Positions 23,797 through 32,050 of a stretch of 36,308 bases of DNA are shown here, one piece after another; within the stretch, counting starts at the first letter, position 1; each line of letters starts with the position of its first letter. The stretch is from a virus (lineage: Duplodnaviria; Heunggongvirae; Uroviricota; Caudoviricetes), in IMG/VR virus record IMGVR_UViG_2563366905_000008. The stretch is one strand, 5' to 3'. A model generated the notes under the pieces. That model was not told the origin of the DNA. It ran no database searches and saw only the letters and a program-made list of their open reading frames with translations. A program made the position numbers and the translations under genes.

Positions 23797-24047
23797 TGAA
23801 AGAATACCGCTATTCCGGCCCGGCCAGCGGCGTCACGCTGTCGGACGGAACCGAAATCCTGCTCTGGCCGGGGAAGACGGTTTCCCTGCCGGAGGAGCAT
23901 GACTACGTGAAGGTACTGGTGGCGCTGAAGCATCTGACGCCGGTACCTGAAGAGACTAAACCCGCCGTCACACCGGCTGTGCAGTCACCAAAGCGCAGAA
24001 GCAGCAGTGACAGCGAAGTGAAAACGGAGGACTCCCATGGCAGCTAA
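23793..24047 (+). CDS. Small hypothetical structural protein (84 aa)
   Basis: Coupled ORF directly upstream of the sheath gene. Confidence 0.5.
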   Translation: MMKEYRYSGPASGVTLSDGTEILLWPGKTVSLPEEHDYVKVLVALKHLTPVPEETKPAVTPAVQSPKRRSSSDSEVKTEDSHGS

Positions 24048-25464
24048 CTATCTGCATGGCGTCGAAACCATTGAGGTGGAAAACGGTGCCCGCCCGGTTA
24101 AAACGGTGAAATCTGCCGTTATTGGCCTGATTGGTACCGCACCAATGGGGGACGTCAATACGCTGGTGCAGTGCCTGTCTGAGAAAGATGCTGCTGCGTT
24201 TGGCAACCAGCTCACCGGCTTTACCATTCCGCAGGCGCTGGATGCGATTTATGACCATGGTGCAGGCACCGTTCTGGTCATTAACGTCCTCGACCCGGCG
24301 AAACATAAAACGGCGATCGAGGATGAGGTGGTTACCTTTGACAAATCGACAGGGCAGGCCAGACTGGCGCATCCGGTTGTCGCTAATGTGGTGGTGAAAA
24401 ACAGTGAAGGCAGCACCGCCCACACGGCGAACACGGACTACCGTGTTGATGCGCAGGCGGGTGTGCTCACGAACCTGGGCAAGGCTATTGAAGCCGGTGG
24501 CAGCGTGAAGGTGAGCTATGAGTACGCGGACCCGTCGAAGGTGACTGCGGCGGACATCATCGGCGGGGTGAACAGCGCCGGAAACCGTACCGGCATGAAG
24601 CTGCTTAACGACAGCTTTAACCTGTACGGCTATTTCGCCAAAATTCTGATTGCGCCAGTGTTCTGCACCCAGAAGAGTGTCGCAGTTGAGCTTATCGCCA
24701 TGGCAGAGAAGCTGGGCGCGGTAACCTACATTGATGCTCCTGTCGGTACCACCTTTGCACAGGCTCTGGCAGGTCGTGGCCCGGAAGGCACCATCAACTT
24801 CAATACCAGCTCCGACCGCGTCCGTCTGTGCTATCCGCACGTCAAGGTGTACGACGCGGTCACCAACAGCGAACGGCTGGAGCCGCTGAGCCAGCGTGCT
24901 GCAGGTCTGCGTGCCAGGGTCGACATGGACAAGGGTTACTGGTGGTCGTCCTCCAACCAGGAGATTCTGGGTATCACTGGTGTGGAGCGCCAACTGTCAG
25001 CAATGATTGACGACCCGCAGAGCGAGGTGAACCTGCTCAACGAACAGGGGATCACCACGGTATTCAGCAGTTACGGCAGCGGCCTTCGTCTGTGGGGTAA
25101 CCGGACGGCAGCATGGCCAACGGTCACCCATATGCGTAACTTTGAGAACGTTCGCCGCACCGGTGATGTGATCAACGAGTCCATTCGTTATTTCAGCCAG
25201 CAGTACATCGACATGCCGATTACTCAGGCGCTGATTGATGCACTGACGGAGTCGGTCAACGCCTACGGTCGCAAAATGACTGGTGATGGTGCGGTACTGG
25301 GCTTCCGTTGCTGGTTTGATCCGGCCCGCAATCCGGAGACGGAGCTGGCCGCCGGGCACCTGTTGCTTAGCTACAAATATACGCCACCACCGCCGCTGGA
25401 GCGACTGACGTATGAGACTGAGATCACCTCGGAATACCTGTTAACCCTGAAAGGGGGCAACTGA
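24037..25464 (+). CDS. Contractile tail sheath protein
   Basis: 475 aa; position before the tube gene; size typical of P2 FI / Mu L-like sheath. Confidence 0.85.
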   Translation: MAANYLHGVETIEVENGARPVKTVKSAVIGLIGTAPMGDVNTLVQCLSEKDAAAFGNQLTGFTIPQALDAIYDHGAGTVLVINVLDPAKHKTAIEDEVVTFDKSTGQARLAHPVVANVVVKNSEGSTAHTANTDYRVDAQAGVLTNLGKAIEAGGSVKVSYEYADPSKVTAADIIGGVNSAGNRTGMKLLNDSFNLYGYFAKILIAPVFCTQKSVAVELIAMAEKLGAVTYIDAPVGTTFAQALAGRGPEGTINFNTSSDRVRLCYPHVKVYDAVTNSERLEPLSQRAAGLRARVDMDKGYWWSSSNQEILGITGVERQLSAMIDDPQSEVNLLNEQGITTVFSSYGSGLRLWGNRTAAWPTVTHMRNFENVRRTGDVINESIRYFSQQYIDMPITQALIDALTESVNAYGRKMTGDGAVLGFRCWFDPARNPETELAAGHLLLSYKYTPPPPLERLTYETEITSEYLLTLKGGN

Positions 25465-25985
25465 TGTCAAAGATTGAGATAAACCGAATCACGAATGCCA
25501 ACATCTATCTGGATGGTACTAACCTGCTGGGACGGGCTGAGGAAGTTAAACTCCCCGATGTCTCCATGATTATGCAGGAGCACAAGGCACTGGGGATGGT
25601 GGGTAAGGTGGAACTCCCGGCTGGTTTTGACAAACTGGAAGGCGAAATCAAATGGAACAGCTTTTACCGCGATGCGATGCTGTCTGCCGCGAACCCGTAC
25701 AGGTCGCTGGCACTGCAGTGTCGTTCCAGCGTCCAGCGCTACAGCTCGCAGGGGCTGATCGACGAAATCCCGCTGGTCACCTTCCTGACGATTATGTTCA
25801 AGAAGAACCCGCTGGGGACGTTCAAACAGCACGAGAACGCCGAGTTCTCCAGTAGCTTCACCTGCACGTATATCAGACAGGTACTGGATGGTGAAGAGCT
25901 GCTGCAACTGGACTATCTGGCCAACATCTTCCGGGTCGGCGGTGTTGATCAACTGACTGACTACCGCATCAATATCGGGGGCTGA
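25464..25985 (+). CDS. Tail tube protein
   Basis: 173 aa, ATGA-coupled to the sheath gene; P2 FII / Mu M-like size and position. Confidence 0.8.
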   Translation: MSKIEINRITNANIYLDGTNLLGRAEEVKLPDVSMIMQEHKALGMVGKVELPAGFDKLEGEIKWNSFYRDAMLSAANPYRSLALQCRSSVQRYSSQGLIDEIPLVTFLTIMFKKNPLGTFKQHENAEFSSSFTCTYIRQVLDGEELLQLDYLANIFRVGGVDQLTDYRINIGG

Positions 25986-25987
25986 CG

Positions 25988-26269
25988 GTGACCGTCGAGA
26001 TTGAAGATAAAGGCGGAAACTGTGGTTCGATTGGTATGGGGAATGGCACGTGGTTTACCCTCCTTGATATTCCGGGGGTGGAACACCTTTTTAATACCCA
26101 GAAAACCAATGACCCGATTGACTGCACACGTTCAAAGGCCCGCAAACTGGCGGATTTGATTGAGGCATGGGAGCCTCCCGACCACTGGTTCTCCGGCACC
26201 GGCAAATCTGAAGGAAAGGCACTTCTCATCGCCTTCCTGCGTAACTGCAAAGGCTTTCGCACTCGCTGA
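25988..26269 (+). CDS. Hypothetical small protein (93 aa), possible moron inside the tail operon
   Basis: GTG at 25988 two nt after the tube stop with a G-rich RBS; complex, non-repetitive product; followed directly by an intrinsic terminator. Confidence 0.4.
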   Translation: MTVEIEDKGGNCGSIGMGNGTWFTLLDIPGVEHLFNTQKTNDPIDCTRSKARKLADLIEAWEPPDHWFSGTGKSEGKALLIAFLRNCKGFRTR

Positions 26270-26275
26270 CATCAC

Positions 26276-26299
26276 AGGGGCTTCGGCCCCTTTCTTCTT
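26276..26299 (+). terminator. Intrinsic terminator after the 93-aa ORF
   Basis: GGGGC-TTCG-GCCCC hairpin followed by TTTCTTCTT. Confidence 0.55.
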
Positions 26300-26367: not shown

Positions 26368-26703
26368 ATGTCACAGACCCAGTCCGATACTTTTACGCTG
26401 TCTTATCCCTTCACCACTGCTGCCGGTACCAGAATTGAGCAGGTTGAACTGAAACGCCTGACGGTAAAAGACCTGAAGCAGGTGCGCAAAATCAGCAAAA
26501 ACCCGGCAGACTGGGACGAACCGCTGATTGCCCGCAGTACTGGTCTTCTCCCGGAAGATCTCGACAATATGGACCTGGCTGATTACCTGCAGTTACAGAA
26601 ACGATTTCAGCTCATCACGGGGATGGGTGAGAGCGACAAAGGCGCTGACGCAGGCGCAGGGGCTGCTGGCGAGATGGTTCCGGTTTCAGCCGGGGGAGAT
26701 TGA
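26368..26703 (+). CDS. Tail assembly chaperone, short form (P2 E-like)
   Basis: 111 aa with AGGAG RBS; position between tube and tape measure genes. Confidence 0.7.
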   Translation: MSQTQSDTFTLSYPFTTAAGTRIEQVELKRLTVKDLKQVRKISKNPADWDEPLIARSTGLLPEDLDNMDLADYLQLQKRFQLITGMGESDKGADAGAGAAGEMVPVSAGGD

Positions 26704-26785
26704 TGCCCTCGATACTGACGATCTGGAGATGTGGCTGGAGCAGGCTGAAGAGCAAATCAAAAGCGAGTACGGCGACAAATCATAG
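26368..26785 (+). CDS. Putative frameshifted long form of tail assembly chaperone (E+E'-like), +1 frame extension
   Basis: A second ORF (track 26528..26785) in the +1 frame overlaps the 3' end of the chaperone gene. Only its C-terminal part (EIDALDTDDLEMWLEQAEEQIKSEYGDKS) looks protein-like. The -1 frame gives an Arg-rich, implausible peptide. Confidence 0.35.
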
Positions 26786-26860
26786 TACAGACAGCCGCCA
26801 GTAGCGGCTGTTCTGCGTTATCCCCTCACGTCTTTTCACCTTCCCCGGAGGTTAACCACT

Positions 26861-29812
26861 ATGTCGGGACAGTTTTCAGTCGGCGTTGTTATCGGCGGGA
26901 TGATTGGCAGCACATTCCGTTCTGCAATGAGCGGTACCCGCCGTGCGCTTGATTCCCTGAGCGATACCTCACGCCGCCTGCAGGAACGTCAGAACGCTTT
27001 AACCCGTGCAACAGAACGTTATGGTCAACTGGGTTCTTCCCGGATGCAGCATCTCAACAGCGAGCTGCTGCGGGTAAGCCGCACCATGGAGCAAATTGAG
27101 CGCCAGCAGCGCCGTCTGTCAGCGGCATCCGCTACCAGTGATGCGCTGAAAGCTAACCGCATGGCGCTGTATGGTCAGGGGATTGAAGCATATGGCATGG
27201 CACAGACTGTTTATCATACGGTTTCCCCTGCCGTTCAGCAGTCCATGTCTTTTCAGGACAAAATGATTGATATGTCGATCACCGCAAAATATGACAATAA
27301 AACGCGGGATGCACTTGCCGGACAGATAAAAGGCTGGGCGCTTAAATACAATCAGTATCAGGATGAGCTGCAGGAGGCGGTGGGTTCGCTCATCAGCGAC
27401 AATATTGATAACTTGTCAGATATCGGTTTTCTGATGCCGGATATTGCCCGCGCGGCAACGGCAACACGCACGTCATCTCAGGACTGGGCAAAAGTGGCCG
27501 CAGTCTGGCAAAACTCCCTGAAAGGTGCCGCCAGAGATTTTGGTGCCGTTCAGAATATTATGGCTTATGCCGGTGACCAGGGGTCATTTGAAATCCCGGA
27601 TCAGGTCAAATGGATGCAGTCCCTGGCCCCAATGATGGCGGGCGTTGCCAGTGGAAAAGAGGCTGTTGCTGAAATCGGAGCCAGTCTCCAGATAGCAAAA
27701 ATCGGTGCAGGTTCCACCGACGAAGCAGCCAATAATTTTAAAAACTTTCTTACCAAAATTTTTGCCCGCGATACTCAGAAACAGTTTGCTGATCTGGGTA
27801 TTGATTTGCAGGGATCTATTGCGAGTTATAAGGCTGCGGGGATCTCTCCGATTGAAGGGATGTTGAGTGTTATAGAACGTTACCTCAATGCCAAAAGCCC
27901 CGAAGCGCTGGCCGGCTTCAAATCTGCCATGAAAATAAAGAATGATACGGCAAGAGATGAGGCACTTCAGGCTCTGGCGAAAAACTTTGGTCTGGGTGAT
28001 ATGTTCGCGGATATGCAGGTCATGGCATTTATCCGCCCGATGCTGGCCAACATGGACAGATATCGCGAGATCCGCGCCGGTGCTCTCAGGGCTGCGGATA
28101 ACGATTTGCTTGCCAGTGCTTATGATCAGCGGCTGAAATCTCCCCTTGAAGCCACTAAAGCACTTATGGTCAGCAGTCGCGATCTGGCTATTACGCTGGG
28201 CGATCAACTCGCCCCCTCTTTTATTTCTCTGACTCAGGAGTTGATCCCACTCATTCAGGGGACAAAACACTGGGTAGCGACTCACCCGCAATTTGTCAGT
28301 GGGGCTTTTAAGCTCATCAGTGCGCTCCTTGCGATTAAGATAGCGACTGTTGGTCTCAAACTGGGGCTGAATCTCCTTATTTCCCCCTTTGTGAACGTCT
28401 GGAAAACTGCTGTTTTACTTCGGGCCAACTGGCTTCGTCTGTCGCTCGCACTGGGGCAAGGCGGTAAGCTCCGCTGGCTGGTGACCGGATTTAGCGCCGT
28501 CGCCAGAGGAGCCAGAACACTGAGTGGCGTGCTCTCCGGGGGGCTGGTTCGCGGAATTATGCTCGCCGGACGTGCTGTTCTCTGGATTGGACGTGCGCTG
28601 ATGATGAATCCCATCGGTCTCGTTATCACCGCTGTCGCGGCAGCAGCTTACCTTATCTACCGCAACTGGGGGGCAGTCAGTGGCTGGTTTAAACAGCGCT
28701 GGGCAGACATTCAGGAAGCCTTTAACGGCGGCATTGTGGGAACTGGTAAGTTGCTGATTAACTGGTCGCCGGCAGGCCTGCTCTATAAAGCCTTTGCGGC
28801 TGCGCTGAAATATTTCGGCGTTGCTCTGCCGGCAAAGTTCACCGACTTCGGTGGCCATCTTATCGACGGTCTGATTAACGGTATCAAAAACAAATGGGGG
28901 TCGCTCAAATCCAGTGTAACCGGAATGGGTGACAGCATCAGTAGCTGGTTTAAACAGTGCTGGGCTGACATTCAGGAAGCCTTTAACGGCGGTATCGCGG
29001 GAACTGGTAAGCTGCTGATTAACTGGTCGCCGGCAGGTCTGCTCTGTAAAGCCTTTGCAGCTGCGCTGAAATATCTTGGTGTTGATCTGCCGGCAAAGTT
29101 CACCGACTTCGGTGGCCATCTTGTCGACGGTCTGATTAACGGTATCAAAAACAAATGGGAGTCGCTCAAATCCAGTGTAACCGGAATGGGTGACAGCATC
29201 AGTGGCTGGTTCAGCGAAAAGCTGGGCATTCATTCGCCGAGCCGCGTGTTTATGGGCTTTGGTGACAATATCGCGCAGGGGGCCGCCATTGGCCTGCAGC
29301 GGACCACTCCGCTTGCAGCTCTGGCCGGGCAGCGAATGGCCAGTGAACTGCTCCCCAGAATGCCCGTGAGCATTCAGGGGCCAGAAATACGGGATAACAC
29401 TTCAGGTGTTCGCTTCAGTATGCCGTTGCCCGATATCAACGGGTTTATGTCGTCTGCTAAAAATGCGATCGGAGCCGTAATCAATAGTTTGTCTTCCATG
29501 CCCGTTATTCCGCTCTCCACCCGGGCATCGGTTTTACCAGGGCAACGTCTGGCAAATGAGATGACACCGGATGTTCCCCGTATCCCCTCGCCTGAAATCC
29601 TGGCTGCCGGATATTCAGGCCGTGGTGCAGCTGCAACCGGCGGTGGAACGTCTGGTGGTATCCAGGTCAGCTTTAATCCTCAGTTTTTCCTCAATGGCAG
29701 GGAAACCACAGCGCCTGCAGGACTGACTGGTGCCCTGAATATGAGTCTGCATGAGCTGGAAAAAATGCTGGAGCGTCTGCTGGCTCAGAAACAACGTAAG
29801 GAGTACCGCTGA
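26861..29812 (+). CDS. Tail tape measure protein
   Basis: 983 aa, largely helical, central hydrophobic segments and Gly-rich C-terminal part; follows the chaperone pair. Confidence 0.85.
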   Translation: MSGQFSVGVVIGGMIGSTFRSAMSGTRRALDSLSDTSRRLQERQNALTRATERYGQLGSSRMQHLNSELLRVSRTMEQIERQQRRLSAASATSDALKANRMALYGQGIEAYGMAQTVYHTVSPAVQQSMSFQDKMIDMSITAKYDNKTRDALAGQIKGWALKYNQYQDELQEAVGSLISDNIDNLSDIGFLMPDIARAATATRTSSQDWAKVAAVWQNSLKGAARDFGAVQNIMAYAGDQGSFEIPDQVKWMQSLAPMMAGVASGKEAVAEIGASLQIAKIGAGSTDEAANNFKNFLTKIFARDTQKQFADLGIDLQGSIASYKAAGISPIEGMLSVIERYLNAKSPEALAGFKSAMKIKNDTARDEALQALAKNFGLGDMFADMQVMAFIRPMLANMDRYREIRAGALRAADNDLLASAYDQRLKSPLEATKALMVSSRDLAITLGDQLAPSFISLTQELIPLIQGTKHWVATHPQFVSGAFKLISALLAIKIATVGLKLGLNLLISPFVNVWKTAVLLRANWLRLSLALGQGGKLRWLVTGFSAVARGARTLSGVLSGGLVRGIMLAGRAVLWIGRALMMNPIGLVITAVAAAAYLIYRNWGAVSGWFKQRWADIQEAFNGGIVGTGKLLINWSPAGLLYKAFAAALKYFGVALPAKFTDFGGHLIDGLINGIKNKWGSLKSSVTGMGDSISSWFKQCWADIQEAFNGGIAGTGKLLINWSPAGLLCKAFAAALKYLGVDLPAKFTDFGGHLVDGLINGIKNKWESLKSSVTGMGDSISGWFSEKLGIHSPSRVFMGFGDNIAQGAAIGLQRTTPLAALAGQRMASELLPRMPVSIQGPEIRDNTSGVRFSMPLPDINGFMSSAKNAIGAVINSLSSMPVIPLSTRASVLPGQRLANEMTPDVPRIPSPEILAAGYSGRGAAATGGGTSGGIQVSFNPQFFLNGRETTAPAGLTGALNMSLHELEKMLERLLAQKQRKEYR
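28685..29206 (+). repeat. In-frame tandem duplication (2 x 261 bp) inside the tape measure gene
   Basis: Copy 1 28685-28945 and copy 2 28946-29206 encode 87-aa units differing at 8 residues (WFKQRWADIQEAFNGG... vs WFKQCWADIQEAFNGG...). Confidence 0.8.
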
Positions 29813-30696
29813 TGTTTGCCGTACTGGGTGATATTGAGTTTGAGCTGATTACCTACTGGGACGGCTTCGAGGCCACGTTCGGCGTCGATTATGCGGAGCA
29901 TGCCCGCATCGGGGGTAAGCCTGGCCTGCAGTTCGTCGGCGACAGGCTGGACGAAATCCAGATAACTCTGGTTTTCCATCAGCATTATTGTGTACCCGAC
30001 GTGGAGCTGGCGAGACTGCGAACAGCCATGAAAGCCCATCAGGCACTGGCGCTGGTCTTCGGCAACGGTGACTATCGCGGCTGGTTCGTGATTACCGATG
30101 TGACTGCAACCAGCGAGCAGACTGACAGTACCGGCAACGTGCTGGCTGTCAGTGCCACCGTGTCTCTCCGGGAATACACCGGTGACCCGAAAAATCCTCT
30201 GCAACCACCGGCAATACGCACGAAGCTCCCGGGTGTCGGGGCGGTCTCCGGTGCCATTCCTTCACCTTCAGGGGTGGCGCAGTTCATCCGCAACGGCGTC
30301 AACTATGCGAAACAGGCGCAGTCTGTACTCCAGACCACTATCAGCGCCGTTCGGGTGACACAGAAAATGAAGGATAACCCCGTTGTCGCACTGACCCGTG
30401 TGCCGGGGCTGATGAGCGGACTGGGTAATATCTCCGGGGCTCTGGGGAAAAGTGTTCCGGCGTTTAACGCACTCTCTGAATCCATGCCCGATGCCATCAG
30501 TCTGGCCAGAACAGCCAGCGAAGCAGCCACGTATGTACAGCAGGCACAGTCTGCGCTGAGTGGTGTGGACAAAAGAAATATTGCAGGTGCTCTGGATACC
30601 GTTTCCGGGCAGCTTAACGCCGCCGGCACAGCATTCAACCGCATGTCTCCGGGATTAAGTGCAATGGCCGCCAGAATACTGACGAGGAGTGTGTGA
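29812..30696 (+). CDS. Tail protein with P2 gpU-like N-terminal domain and Ala/Ser-rich C-terminal extension
   Basis: ATGA-coupled to the tape measure gene; N-terminal ~130 aa resemble gpU-type tail proteins; position after the tape measure gene. Confidence 0.6.
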   Translation: MFAVLGDIEFELITYWDGFEATFGVDYAEHARIGGKPGLQFVGDRLDEIQITLVFHQHYCVPDVELARLRTAMKAHQALALVFGNGDYRGWFVITDVTATSEQTDSTGNVLAVSATVSLREYTGDPKNPLQPPAIRTKLPGVGAVSGAIPSPSGVAQFIRNGVNYAKQAQSVLQTTISAVRVTQKMKDNPVVALTRVPGLMSGLGNISGALGKSVPAFNALSESMPDAISLARTASEAATYVQQAQSALSGVDKRNIAGALDTVSGQLNAAGTAFNRMSPGLSAMAARILTRSV

Positions 30697-30908
30697 TGTT
30701 TCTTGAACATGTTACCCGTGACGGAGAGCGCTGGGATTCGCTGGCATGGCAGTACTACGGTGACCCGCTGGGCTATCCCCGGATTATTGCCGCCAATCCG
30801 CACGTGGCCATCACGCCGGTGCTGCCCTCCGGGCTGTTGTTACTGATCCCGGTGATTGAGGCTGAAGAAGCCCGTACAGAAGAGGATATTGCCCCATGGC
30901 TGAGATAA
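30693..30908 (+). CDS. Tail protein X-like (P2 gpX family)
   Basis: 71 aa; motif WDSLAWQYYGDPLGYPRIIAANPHV resembles gpX-type tail proteins. Confidence 0.65.
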   Translation: MMFLEHVTRDGERWDSLAWQYYGDPLGYPRIIAANPHVAITPVLPSGLLLLIPVIEAEEARTEEDIAPWLR

Positions 30909-32050
30909 ACAGCACTGCGCAAGTCACATCAGCGTTAACCGGCGTCAGCGATGTGCTGACACCGGTGTTCACTCTGTGGTATCTGCAGAAAAACATCACC
31001 TCTGATATCGCGCCTTATGTCACCCGTGTGACCTGGAGCGATAACATCAAAAATGAGTCCGATACCATTGAGGTGGAACTGGACGACACCGATGGCCGCT
31101 GGCTGGATAAATGGTATCCGGGCAAGGGTGACACGCTGACGCTGAAAATGGGCTATCAGGGCGAGAAGCTGCTGTCCTGCGGTACGTTCTCTATAGACGA
31201 GATCGAAGTGAGTTCGCCCGCTTCCGTTGTTTCTATCCGTGGGGTGGCCACCTCGGTTAACAGTGCCCTGCGGACTAAAACCAGTCGTGGTTTTGAGAAC
31301 ACCACGCTGGCGGCCATCGCGGGAAGGATTGCCCGAAAGCACCGGCTGAAACTGGTGGGCAGCATTGAGACCATCAGAATCGACCGGGTGACCCAGTATG
31401 CTGAAACCGACGTGGGTTTTCTGCGCCGGCTGGCCAGCGAGTATGGTTATGCAGTGAAAGTGGTCAGTGACCAGCTGATTTTTTCTCATCTGGCCACACT
31501 GCGCAGTCAGGAGCCGGTCAGGCAGTTAAAACCGCAGGATGTGGCCCGCTTTTCCCTGCGTGACACCATCAACCGGGTCTATAAATCTGCAAAGGTAAAA
31601 CACCAGAAAAGCAGCAGTAAAAAACTGATCGTCTACGAAGCTGATGGTGGCACCCGTGAAAGCGACAAAAAGCTCAAAGGTGGTAAGGTTACCAGCGCTG
31701 ACTCACTTAAAGTTAACAGCCGCGTCAGCGACCCGGACAGTGCCCGGATTAAAGCGGATTCAGCACTGGCCAGACATAACGAATACCAGCAGAACGGCTC
31801 CCTGACGCTGACGGGAACACCTCAACTGACAGCAGGCAACAAAATTGAACTGGTGGGTTTTGGGCAGTTATCCGGGCCATGGCTCATAACCACTGCCCGC
31901 CATGCGTTTGACCGTAACAGCGGCTACACCACAGAGCTGGAAGTGGCACGGGGGCCAGTCACAAGAGGGAAAAAACAAAAAACTCAGAAACTCACGGTTT
32001 ATCACCCGGATGGCAGTACATCGACGGTGATTAAGGAGAAGAAAAAATGA
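30896..32050 (+). CDS. Tail protein D-like (late control D family)
   Basis: 384 aa; position after the X-like gene and before the spike gene; basic C-terminal tail. Confidence 0.75.
   Translation: MAEINSTAQVTSALTGVSDVLTPVFTLWYLQKNITSDIAPYVTRVTWSDNIKNESDTIEVELDDTDGRWLDKWYPGKGDTLTLKMGYQGEKLLSCGTFSIDEIEVSSPASVVSIRGVATSVNSALRTKTSRGFENTTLAAIAGRIARKHRLKLVGSIETIRIDRVTQYAETDVGFLRRLASEYGYAVKVVSDQLIFSHLATLRSQEPVRQLKPQDVARFSLRDTINRVYKSAKVKHQKSSSKKLIVYEADGGTRESDKKLKGGKVTSADSLKVNSRVSDPDSARIKADSALARHNEYQQNGSLTLTGTPQLTAGNKIELVGFGQLSGPWLITTARHAFDRNSGYTTELEVARGPVTRGKKQKTQKLTVYHPDGSTSTVIKEKKK

Follow-up and report, generated by a model that had tools for sequence, protein, structure and literature searches.

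The stretch of DNA analysed here, 36,308 nucleotides (nt) in length and referred to below as the window, is 100% identical to a prophage of Escherichia coli strain A20 and shares 95% identity with Escherichia phage PhiKM, which is classified as a Bcepmuvirus. Its tail module is that of a BcepMu-like E. coli prophage and forms a P2-like contractile-tail block within a Mu-like genome. The element considered here is this module's gene for the tail assembly chaperone together with an open reading frame (ORF) that overlaps its 3' end in the +1 frame. Our analyses concern whether the two are joined into a long form of the chaperone by a ribosomal frameshift, and at which codon. The locus was found in 637 of 5426 complete E. 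coli genomes.

The chaperone gene (26368-26703, + strand, frame 1) encodes a 111-residue homologue of P2 gpE and Mu gp41. Residues 8 to 81 match PF10109 (Phage_TAC_7, 'E, or 41 or 14') with E=2e-22, scoring 79.5 bits against a cutoff of 25, and in the record of E. coli A20, which is identical at 100%, PGAP labels the product 'phage tail assembly protein'. The conserved chaperone domain ends at F80; the remaining tail is G/A-rich and of variable length among relatives. The +1 frame (frame 2) is open from 26528 to 26785 and so overlaps the 3' end of the chaperone ORF. The -1 frame contains stops until 26648 and is open only from 26649 to 26804, where it reads an Arg-rich peptide, RRRRGCWRDGSGFSRGRL..., that is not conserved in relatives and whose length there is just 13 to 82 residues. 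An earlier reading of this sequence, made from the letters alone and called the original prediction below, had described the overlap of the two ORFs and had judged the -1 peptide to be implausible, and both observations hold.

Counted from the shift site proposed below, the +1-frame extension occupies 26609-26785 on the + strand and consists of 58 codons (SSSRGWVRATKALTQAQGLLARWFRFQPGEIDALDTDDLEMWLEQAEEQIKSEYGDKS) and a TAG stop at 26783-26785. The core of the E'-like domain (26666-26764, + strand; LARWFRFQPGEIDALDTDDLEMWLEQAEEQIKS) is the stretch that matches PF06528 (Phage_P2_GpE). For the window this match reaches 16 to 18 bits (E=0.002-0.008), where the gathering score is 23; six of 13 clade members match at E<=0.01, the best of them at 2.9e-7. 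The same +1 ORF is named 'GpE family phage tail protein' by PGAP in other E. coli genomes and is unannotated in A20. When 13 predicted fusions drawn from all lineages were compared with P2 gpE+E' using hhalign, the two were colinear over residues 1-129 and 1-136 with a probability of 95.6% and E=1e-8. By these profile comparisons, the product of the +1 ORF appears to be homologous to the E' extension found in gpE+E' of phage P2. An NCBIfam search with both ORFs gave no match, and no solved relative turned up when PDB sequences were searched with the fusion profile.

Related loci were collected from GTDB genomes (11 loci), from IMG/VR (approximately 115 loci) and from phage records (BcepMu, Ralstonia YO107_2, Pseudomonas Bise and Komp_PAO1_1, Salmonella SARB27, Pasteurella AFS-2018a, Wolbachia WO, P2 and Mu), and the chaperone and E' domains were placed in each locus by hidden Markov models (HMMs). 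A further IMG/VR scan, with P2 gpE as the query, brought no added diversity, yielding nothing but near-identical copies of P2. Of 133 related loci, 128 have the E'-like domain in the +1 frame, three have it in the -1 frame and two in frame with the chaperone. A +1 placement shared by 128 of 133 loci is not the product of chance or sequencing error, and it agrees with the earlier proposal that the long form would use the +1 frame instead of the usual -1 frame. The 128 loci reduce to 99 unique sequences, to which all counts of unique sequences below refer. They come from Enterobacterales, Ralstonia, Burkholderia BcepMu and Pseudomonas, and in all 99 the E'-like domain follows the chaperone domain in the same manner.

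The survey also bears on the possibility that the window holds a decayed or mis-sequenced P2-type gene, in which an indel displaced E' from the -1 frame and no long form is made. Indel variants are indeed present in database assemblies of this stretch. However, the same +1 layout recurs in 128 loci from four bacterial orders, including the isolated phages PhiKM, KP12, BcepMu, Bise and Komp_PAO1_1, and the locus is common among complete E. coli genomes (the 637 mentioned above). The +1 peptide is under clear purifying selection, and BcepMu and PhiKM form normal tails as isolated phages. We find decay hardly credible as an explanation.

If no frameshift occurred, the +1 ORF might still be translated alone, as a protein of approximately 52 residues starting, for example, at the GTG at 26627. 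This codon has GGGG four bases upstream, PGAP annotates a free-standing ORF in some genomes, and the BcepMu record lists the equivalent as a separate gene, gp42. Homologues speak against an independent gene, since the 99 unique sequences share no conserved start codon in the +1 frame: the best position is shared by 39, four have no start at all, and an ATG or GTG with a Shine-Dalgarno (SD)-like motif is present in only 21. Starts vary in both position and kind, and those chosen by annotators differ between genomes. In P2, moreover, the E' homologue is produced solely in fused form, as E+E' (PMC3091744). Separate translation would also leave unexplained why CGA_TTT_C, described below, is invariant at synonymous positions. 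We consider it quite unlikely that the +1 ORF is a gene of its own, in line with the earlier view of it as the C-terminal extension in a frameshift fusion.

The position of the shift was bounded using a permissive interval, which begins once the +1 frame is open and lasts until the zero frame stops. On the upstream side, 14 unique sequences (Ralstonia-like and Pseudomonas Komp_PAO1_1) have a +1 frame that opens just two codons before a TTT codon that corresponds to Phe80 of the window. In five others (Bise-like phages and an E. coli TAG variant), frame 0 stops 10 to 11 codons downstream of this TTT; across the relatives, frame 0 runs 10 to 36 codons beyond it. Within the resulting interval of approximately 13 codons, TTT_C is the sole invariant feature. 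GGG codons in the same interval are not conserved, and the locus L099, for example, has GGC. In the window the motif reads CGA_TTT_C and occupies 26602-26608 on the + strand, with CGA at 26602-26604, TTT (Phe80) at 26605-26607 and C at 26608. Alignment with chaperone long forms of related phages had been suggested together with the original prediction as a means of locating the shift; the relatives point to this invariant TTT_C and not to the G-run named there.

Exactly one TTT_C is present in the permissive window of each of the 99 unique sequences, always at the last residue of the chaperone domain, in 12 different codon contexts. The most frequent is CGA TTT CAG (64 unique sequences), followed by CGA TTT CTG (13), TCC TTT CGC (seven) and GCC TTT CGC (five), with eight other contexts accounting for a further 10. 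The amino acid after Phe may be Q, L, R or H, and its codon begins with C every time. GC-rich loci keep TTT_C in 27 of 27 cases, though TTT makes up only approximately 22% of the Phe codons in their long open frames. The preceding codon is similarly restricted: where it encodes Arg, it is CGA in 80 of 80 cases; the background share of CGA is 3% among the remaining Arg codons of these genes and 4% in the tail genes of the window.

Conservation of the two reading frames changes across this motif. Upstream of it, mean pairwise identity is 0.79 in frame 0 and 0.54 in the +1 frame, and from codon 17 onward the values are 0.76 and 0.94, respectively; the 16-codon linker between these regions is poorly conserved in both frames. 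A +1-frame Trp is found three to six residues past the site in 94 of the 99 unique sequences (26624-26626 in the window) and aligns across Enterobacterales, Ralstonia, Burkholderia and Pseudomonas. As control frames are also fairly Trp-rich, we regard this residue as modest evidence for +1 translation so close to the motif. In the E. coli TAG variant (L024/L025), which was also found at 100% identity in six complete E. coli genomes among the matches listed (H65-H70), a CAG codon has become TAG; the zero-frame chaperone stops after 90 residues (...GESN*) and the +1 frame stays intact. This sublineage suggests that the G/A-rich zero-frame tail is dispensable.

The original prediction had placed the shift near the zero-frame stop, at the G-run 26692-26696, and had held that only the distal part of the +1 ORF looks like real protein. 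The codons concerned are GCC GGG GGA GAT TGA (26689-26703); the motif given for them, CCGGGGGAGATTGA, actually occupies 26690-26703 and not 26689-26703. A +1 or a Mu-like -2 shift here would yield ...EMVPVSAG(G)-EIDALD..., with VSAG(G)EIDALDTDDLEMWLEQAEEQIK as the expected junction peptide. The run is similar to CGG_GGG_CGA, the verified -2 site of Mu, re-pairing from GGG to GGG could take place, and the stop two codons away could slow ribosomes. Nevertheless, the run is in a different codon phase from that of Mu, it is replaced by CCTGTGGAG or CCGAGTGAG in some relatives, and at least 36 of the 99 unique relatives have a zero frame that already stops at GTT TAG, seven codons upstream of the run. 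This early end was seen in Buttiauxella, Mixta, Pantoea and Trabulsiella as well as other loci, while the window's frame-0 length is shared by only 22 of the 99.

The +1 peptide is also strongly conserved well before the G-run, from approximately 26645 (L..QAQGLLARWF). A product joined at the run would be without QAQGLLARWFRFQP, the best conserved +1 segment (0.94 versus 0.76 in frame 0), which aligns to the P2 E' core FHWPPSEL. Together with the +1-frame Trp shared by distant lineages, this conservation contradicts the idea of an exclusively distal coding region. Taken together, the early zero-frame stops and the conserved upstream +1 peptide in relatives place the shift well upstream of the G-run. 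We rejected CCGGGGGAGATTGA as the programmed site on these grounds and consider a shift there highly improbable.

The same G5 run appears to be a recurrent site of one-base deletions in public assemblies (P0016, P0022-P0024 and L012). These deletions create in-frame chaperone-E' 'fusions' that do not contain the conserved LLARWFRFQP, and they are probably homopolymer errors. The in-frame fusions joined at PVSAG|EIDALD come from single assemblies, and L012, one of the two in-frame loci of the survey, is fused at the G-run. The 138-residue 'fusions' in databases have scattered junctions (PVSAG|EIDALD, ESNQ|ALTQ, SDK|TLMQ and ITG|WVRAT) and further frame errors, and were set aside as indel artefacts of error-prone assemblies. 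A protein database search found no annotated fusion with the junction KRF|SSSRGW, which is the one predicted for a slip at CGA_TTT_C.

A +1 shift elsewhere in the linker (26609-26640) would place the junction slightly downstream of the TTT_C. The candidate sites are ACG_GGG_A (26617-26623) and AAA_G (26637-26640), and the site used might vary by lineage. Both GGG_N and AAA_G permit +1 re-pairing, linker conservation does not separate the frames, and Bise-like phages also have CCC_C and a UCC_UGA stop context. However, these motifs are not conserved: relatives read ACT GGG CTG, ACA GGC CTG, GAC GAA GGC and similar sequences at the corresponding positions. The conserved +1-frame Trp described above lies at or upstream of the candidate motifs, and the invariance of CGA_TTT_C would again be left without an explanation. 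We judge a linker site to be unlikely.

The long form is most likely made by a +1 slip at the conserved CGA-UUU-C, 95 bases upstream of the site in the original prediction. E. coli has a single tRNA-Phe, with anticodon GAA, that pairs better with UUC than with UUU, and Fu and Parker (1994) and Schwartz and Curran (1997) reportedly described UUU-pyrimidine sites as prone to +1 shifting in E. coli. In a minority of ribosomes, tRNA-Phe on the P-site UUU (26605-26607) would slip +1 onto UUC (26606-26608), and reading would resume at AGC (26609) in the +1 frame to the TAG at 26783-26785. The long form would have 138 residues, Met1-Phe80 followed by the 58-residue E'-like extension, and the 111-residue gpE homologue would be the short form. 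In function, the long form would correspond to P2 gpE+E' and lambda gpGT. The predicted junction is ...LQK-RF|SSSRGWVR..., for which the diagnostic Lys-C peptide would be RFSSSRGWVRATK. Mass spectrometry of virions, which had been proposed as a test, would miss a junction peptide, since chaperones are absent from mature virions, as known from lambda G/GT biology (PMC5009743).

The slip at CGA-UUU-C is probably ribosomal and forward by one base. Transcriptional slippage was rejected because no homopolymer of more than five bases exists in the permissive interval, and a Mu-like -2 shift was rejected because no -2 re-pairing is possible at the conserved site and the Mu extension is not homologous. 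The rare CGA before UUU is probably part of the signal, through a weak I:A wobble pair in the E site; in the RF2 system, weak E-site pairing is reported to raise +1 shifting. Efficiency would probably be low, a few percent at most, given that no RNA structure or SD-like stimulator is evident and that the A-site codon CAG is common. For Mu, frameshift efficiency has been estimated at approximately 2.2%. By analogy with P2 gpE+E' and lambda gpGT, both forms would coat the tape measure protein and the extension would recruit the tube protein, with neither form staying in the virion.

Several points count against a +1 slip at exactly this codon. The 99 sequences are related, so that 99 of 99 does not amount to 99 independent observations, and combining frame bounds across relatives assumes that the site is homologous in all of them. 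The HMM seeds for the chaperone were cut at Phe80, which favours that position, while unbiased hhalign and MAFFT alignments support the site only to within three residues. Over codons +1 to +12 past the site, conservation does not clearly favour either frame (0.57 versus 0.63), and the choice of codon therefore depends on the invariance of the motif together with frame bounds that come from different relatives. A stimulatory RNA structure was neither found nor conserved around the site (z=-1.47; consensus -4.7 kcal/mol, with no compensatory pairs), and an Rfam scan of the whole window returned no element. The A-site codon CAG is common, with 86 CAG and 15 CAA in the window's tail genes, and the 'hungry codon' that is the usual bacterial stimulator is absent. 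Finally, the window extension falls under the Pfam gathering threshold for PF06528.

The genes that surround the pair follow a contractile-tail order. The sheath gene (24037-25464) is followed by the gene for the tail tube protein (25464-25985, + strand; P2 FII-like, PF04985, E=3e-53), the presumed partner of the E' extension. Directly downstream of the pair is the tail tape measure gene (26861-29812, + strand; PF10145, E=5e-20), whose product is the presumed client of the chaperone pair, and the gpU (29812-30696), gpX (30693-30908) and gpD (30896-32050) genes come next. The chaperone and its extension are therefore located between tube and tape measure genes, as are pairs of the lambda G/GT type.

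A small ORF of 93 residues (25988-26269) lies between the tube and chaperone genes. Its match to DUF7739 is weak and sub-threshold (E=5.5e-4), the E. coli A20 and PhiKM records list it as hypothetical, and P2 has no gene at this position. Between this ORF and the chaperone start is a terminator-like hairpin (26276-26291; AGGGGCTTCGGCCCCT, then TTCTTCTT), which would either dampen read-through or separate sheath and tube transcription from transcription of the chaperone and tape measure genes. The 75-nt gap from the stop of the +1 extension to the start of the tape measure gene holds another hairpin, perfect over 8 bp (ACAGCCGC-cagta-GCGGCTGT, 26791-26811), which lacks a U-tract and received no terminator flag. 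The tape measure gene itself contains a 261-nt tandem duplication (28677-29211; 2.0 copies, 93% identical, approximately 87 residues per copy). Since tape measure length sets tail length, a longer tail would be expected than in single-copy relatives. The PhiKM record has a sequencing gap at the place of this duplication.

The long chaperone form is unannotated in the records examined, though the family is widespread, occurring in E. coli and in isolated Klebsiella, Ralstonia, Burkholderia and Pseudomonas phages. PGAP either omits the extension or lists a 'GpE family' ORF that stands alone and has arbitrary starts, and the BcepMu record puts the slippage at gp42/gp43. In the literature and databases, where the work of Xu et al. 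2004, Baranov et al. 2006 and Christie et al. 2002 was consulted through citing papers and GenBank notes, we found no description of a UUU_C (CGA_UUU_C) +1 site in the gpE/E' family or of its equivalence to the P2 -1 site. According to reviews, the shift in this gene pair may be -1, -2 or +1 among tailed phages, and in Mu it is -2 (PMC5009743; the Mu GenBank record concurs on Mu). With the Mu -2 shift verified, calling a departure from -1 'unusual', as was done originally, was an overstatement: a +1-frame extension is uncommon and has precedent, and it is the CGA_UUU_C site and its positional match to the P2 site that appear to be undescribed. As forward and -2 shifts were already documented in this gene class, our results refine existing knowledge and do not overturn it. 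If correct, the proposed site would be among very few natural bacterial +1 recoding sites without a stop or hungry codon. A conserved UUU_C site with an invariant rare E-site codon would also lend itself to simple tests in bacteria, as a model of how the E site affects frame maintenance.

Comparison with known systems places the pair among several recoding strategies for the same purpose. The lambda gpG/gpGT pair has the same position between the major tail and tape measure genes and, by analogy, the same logic of a low, fixed ratio of long to short form set by recoding. It shares no sequence similarity with the pair described here, shifts -1 at G_GGA_AAG and belongs to a siphovirus, whose tail is not contractile. 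In BcepMu (AY539836; locus L102, 889-1650), the record calls gp42 the 'lambda G' analogue and gp43 its slippage product. Judged by homology, gp41 (PF10109) and gp42 (E'-like, +1 frame, TCC TTT CGC) are the E/E' pair. The gp43 gene fills a 275-nt gap before the tape measure gene, and this gap is absent from the window.

Mu is a relative among the transposable phages, and its chaperone falls by name in the same Pfam family (E, or 41, or 14). Its gp41 extension lies in the +1/-2 frame, like that of the window, and CGA is part of the motif in both. The verified Mu shift, however, is a -2 slip on the G-run of CGG_GGG_CGA with CGA in the A site, whereas the window has CGA in the E-site position and allows no -2 re-pairing. 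The Mu extension is not E'-like, as it gave no hit with the E' HMM, and the only G5 of the window (26692-26696) lies downstream of conserved +1 coding sequence and not at the frame junction as in Mu.

A close parallel to the proposed slip itself is found in influenza A PA-X, where +1 slippage on UCC_UUU_CGU was shown by mass spectrometry and explained by the same preference of tRNA-Phe for UUC (PMC3498833), and in amalgavirus-type sites (UUU_CGN). The slip tetranucleotide UUU_C is identical, and the same P-site move of tRNA-Phe from UUU to UUC would apply. PA-X, like the window clade, has no RNA stimulator and a motif conserved at synonymous positions. BcepMu-lineage members with TCC or GCC_TTT_CGC essentially match the PA-X motif, and BcepMu itself has TCC TTT CGC. 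On the other hand, PA-X and the amalgavirus sites belong to eukaryotic viruses, act on eukaryotic ribosomes and involve unrelated proteins with another function. The PA-X flanks are UCC and CGU, while most clade members, including the window, have CGA in the E site and CAG or CTG in the A site. A rare or slowly decoded A-site codon would be expected at a PA-X-class site; the window has the common Gln codon CAG there, its rare codon being instead the preceding CGA, and BcepMu has CGC.

P2 provides a close comparison for the genes. Its gene order is that of the window (sheath, tube, E/E', tape measure, U, (X), D), both halves of its chaperone pair appear homologous to the chaperone and extension of the window by profile comparison, and no downstream RNA structure is present in either. 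The P2 products have 91 and 142 residues (PMC3091744), almost equal in size to the 111 residues and predicted 138 residues of the window. In the profile alignment, the Phe UUU of the verified -1 slip in P2 lies within three residues of F80. The two differ in direction: P2 reaches its extension in the -1 frame by a tandem slip on the heptanucleotide T_TTT_TTG, whereas a single-tRNA P-site slip on UUU_C, within CGA TTT CAG, is proposed for the +1 frame of the window. The zero frame continues for seven codons past the site in P2 and approximately 31 in the window. Loci of the -1 type have their motif at this place, with GGT TTT TTG in P2 and Wolbachia WO and AGT TTT TTC in L138; Pasteurella AFS-2018a, also -1, has A_AAG_GGA.

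As far as aligned sequences can tell, the gpE/E' family has a single conserved place for the shift, which goes backward on a U-rich heptamer in the P2 type and forward on UUU_C in the BcepMu type. If true, this would be a natural case of a switch in frameshift direction at a single site, with position and purpose kept. On somewhat better than even grounds, we propose for the BcepMu-like phages of Proteobacteria as a whole a conserved, structure-independent +1 programmed frameshift on CGA_UUU_C or YCC_UUU_CGY, with CGA as an E-site stimulator. It would be a bacterial counterpart of PA-X, having replaced an ancestral P2-type -1 shift on T_TTT_TTG at essentially the same Phe codon.

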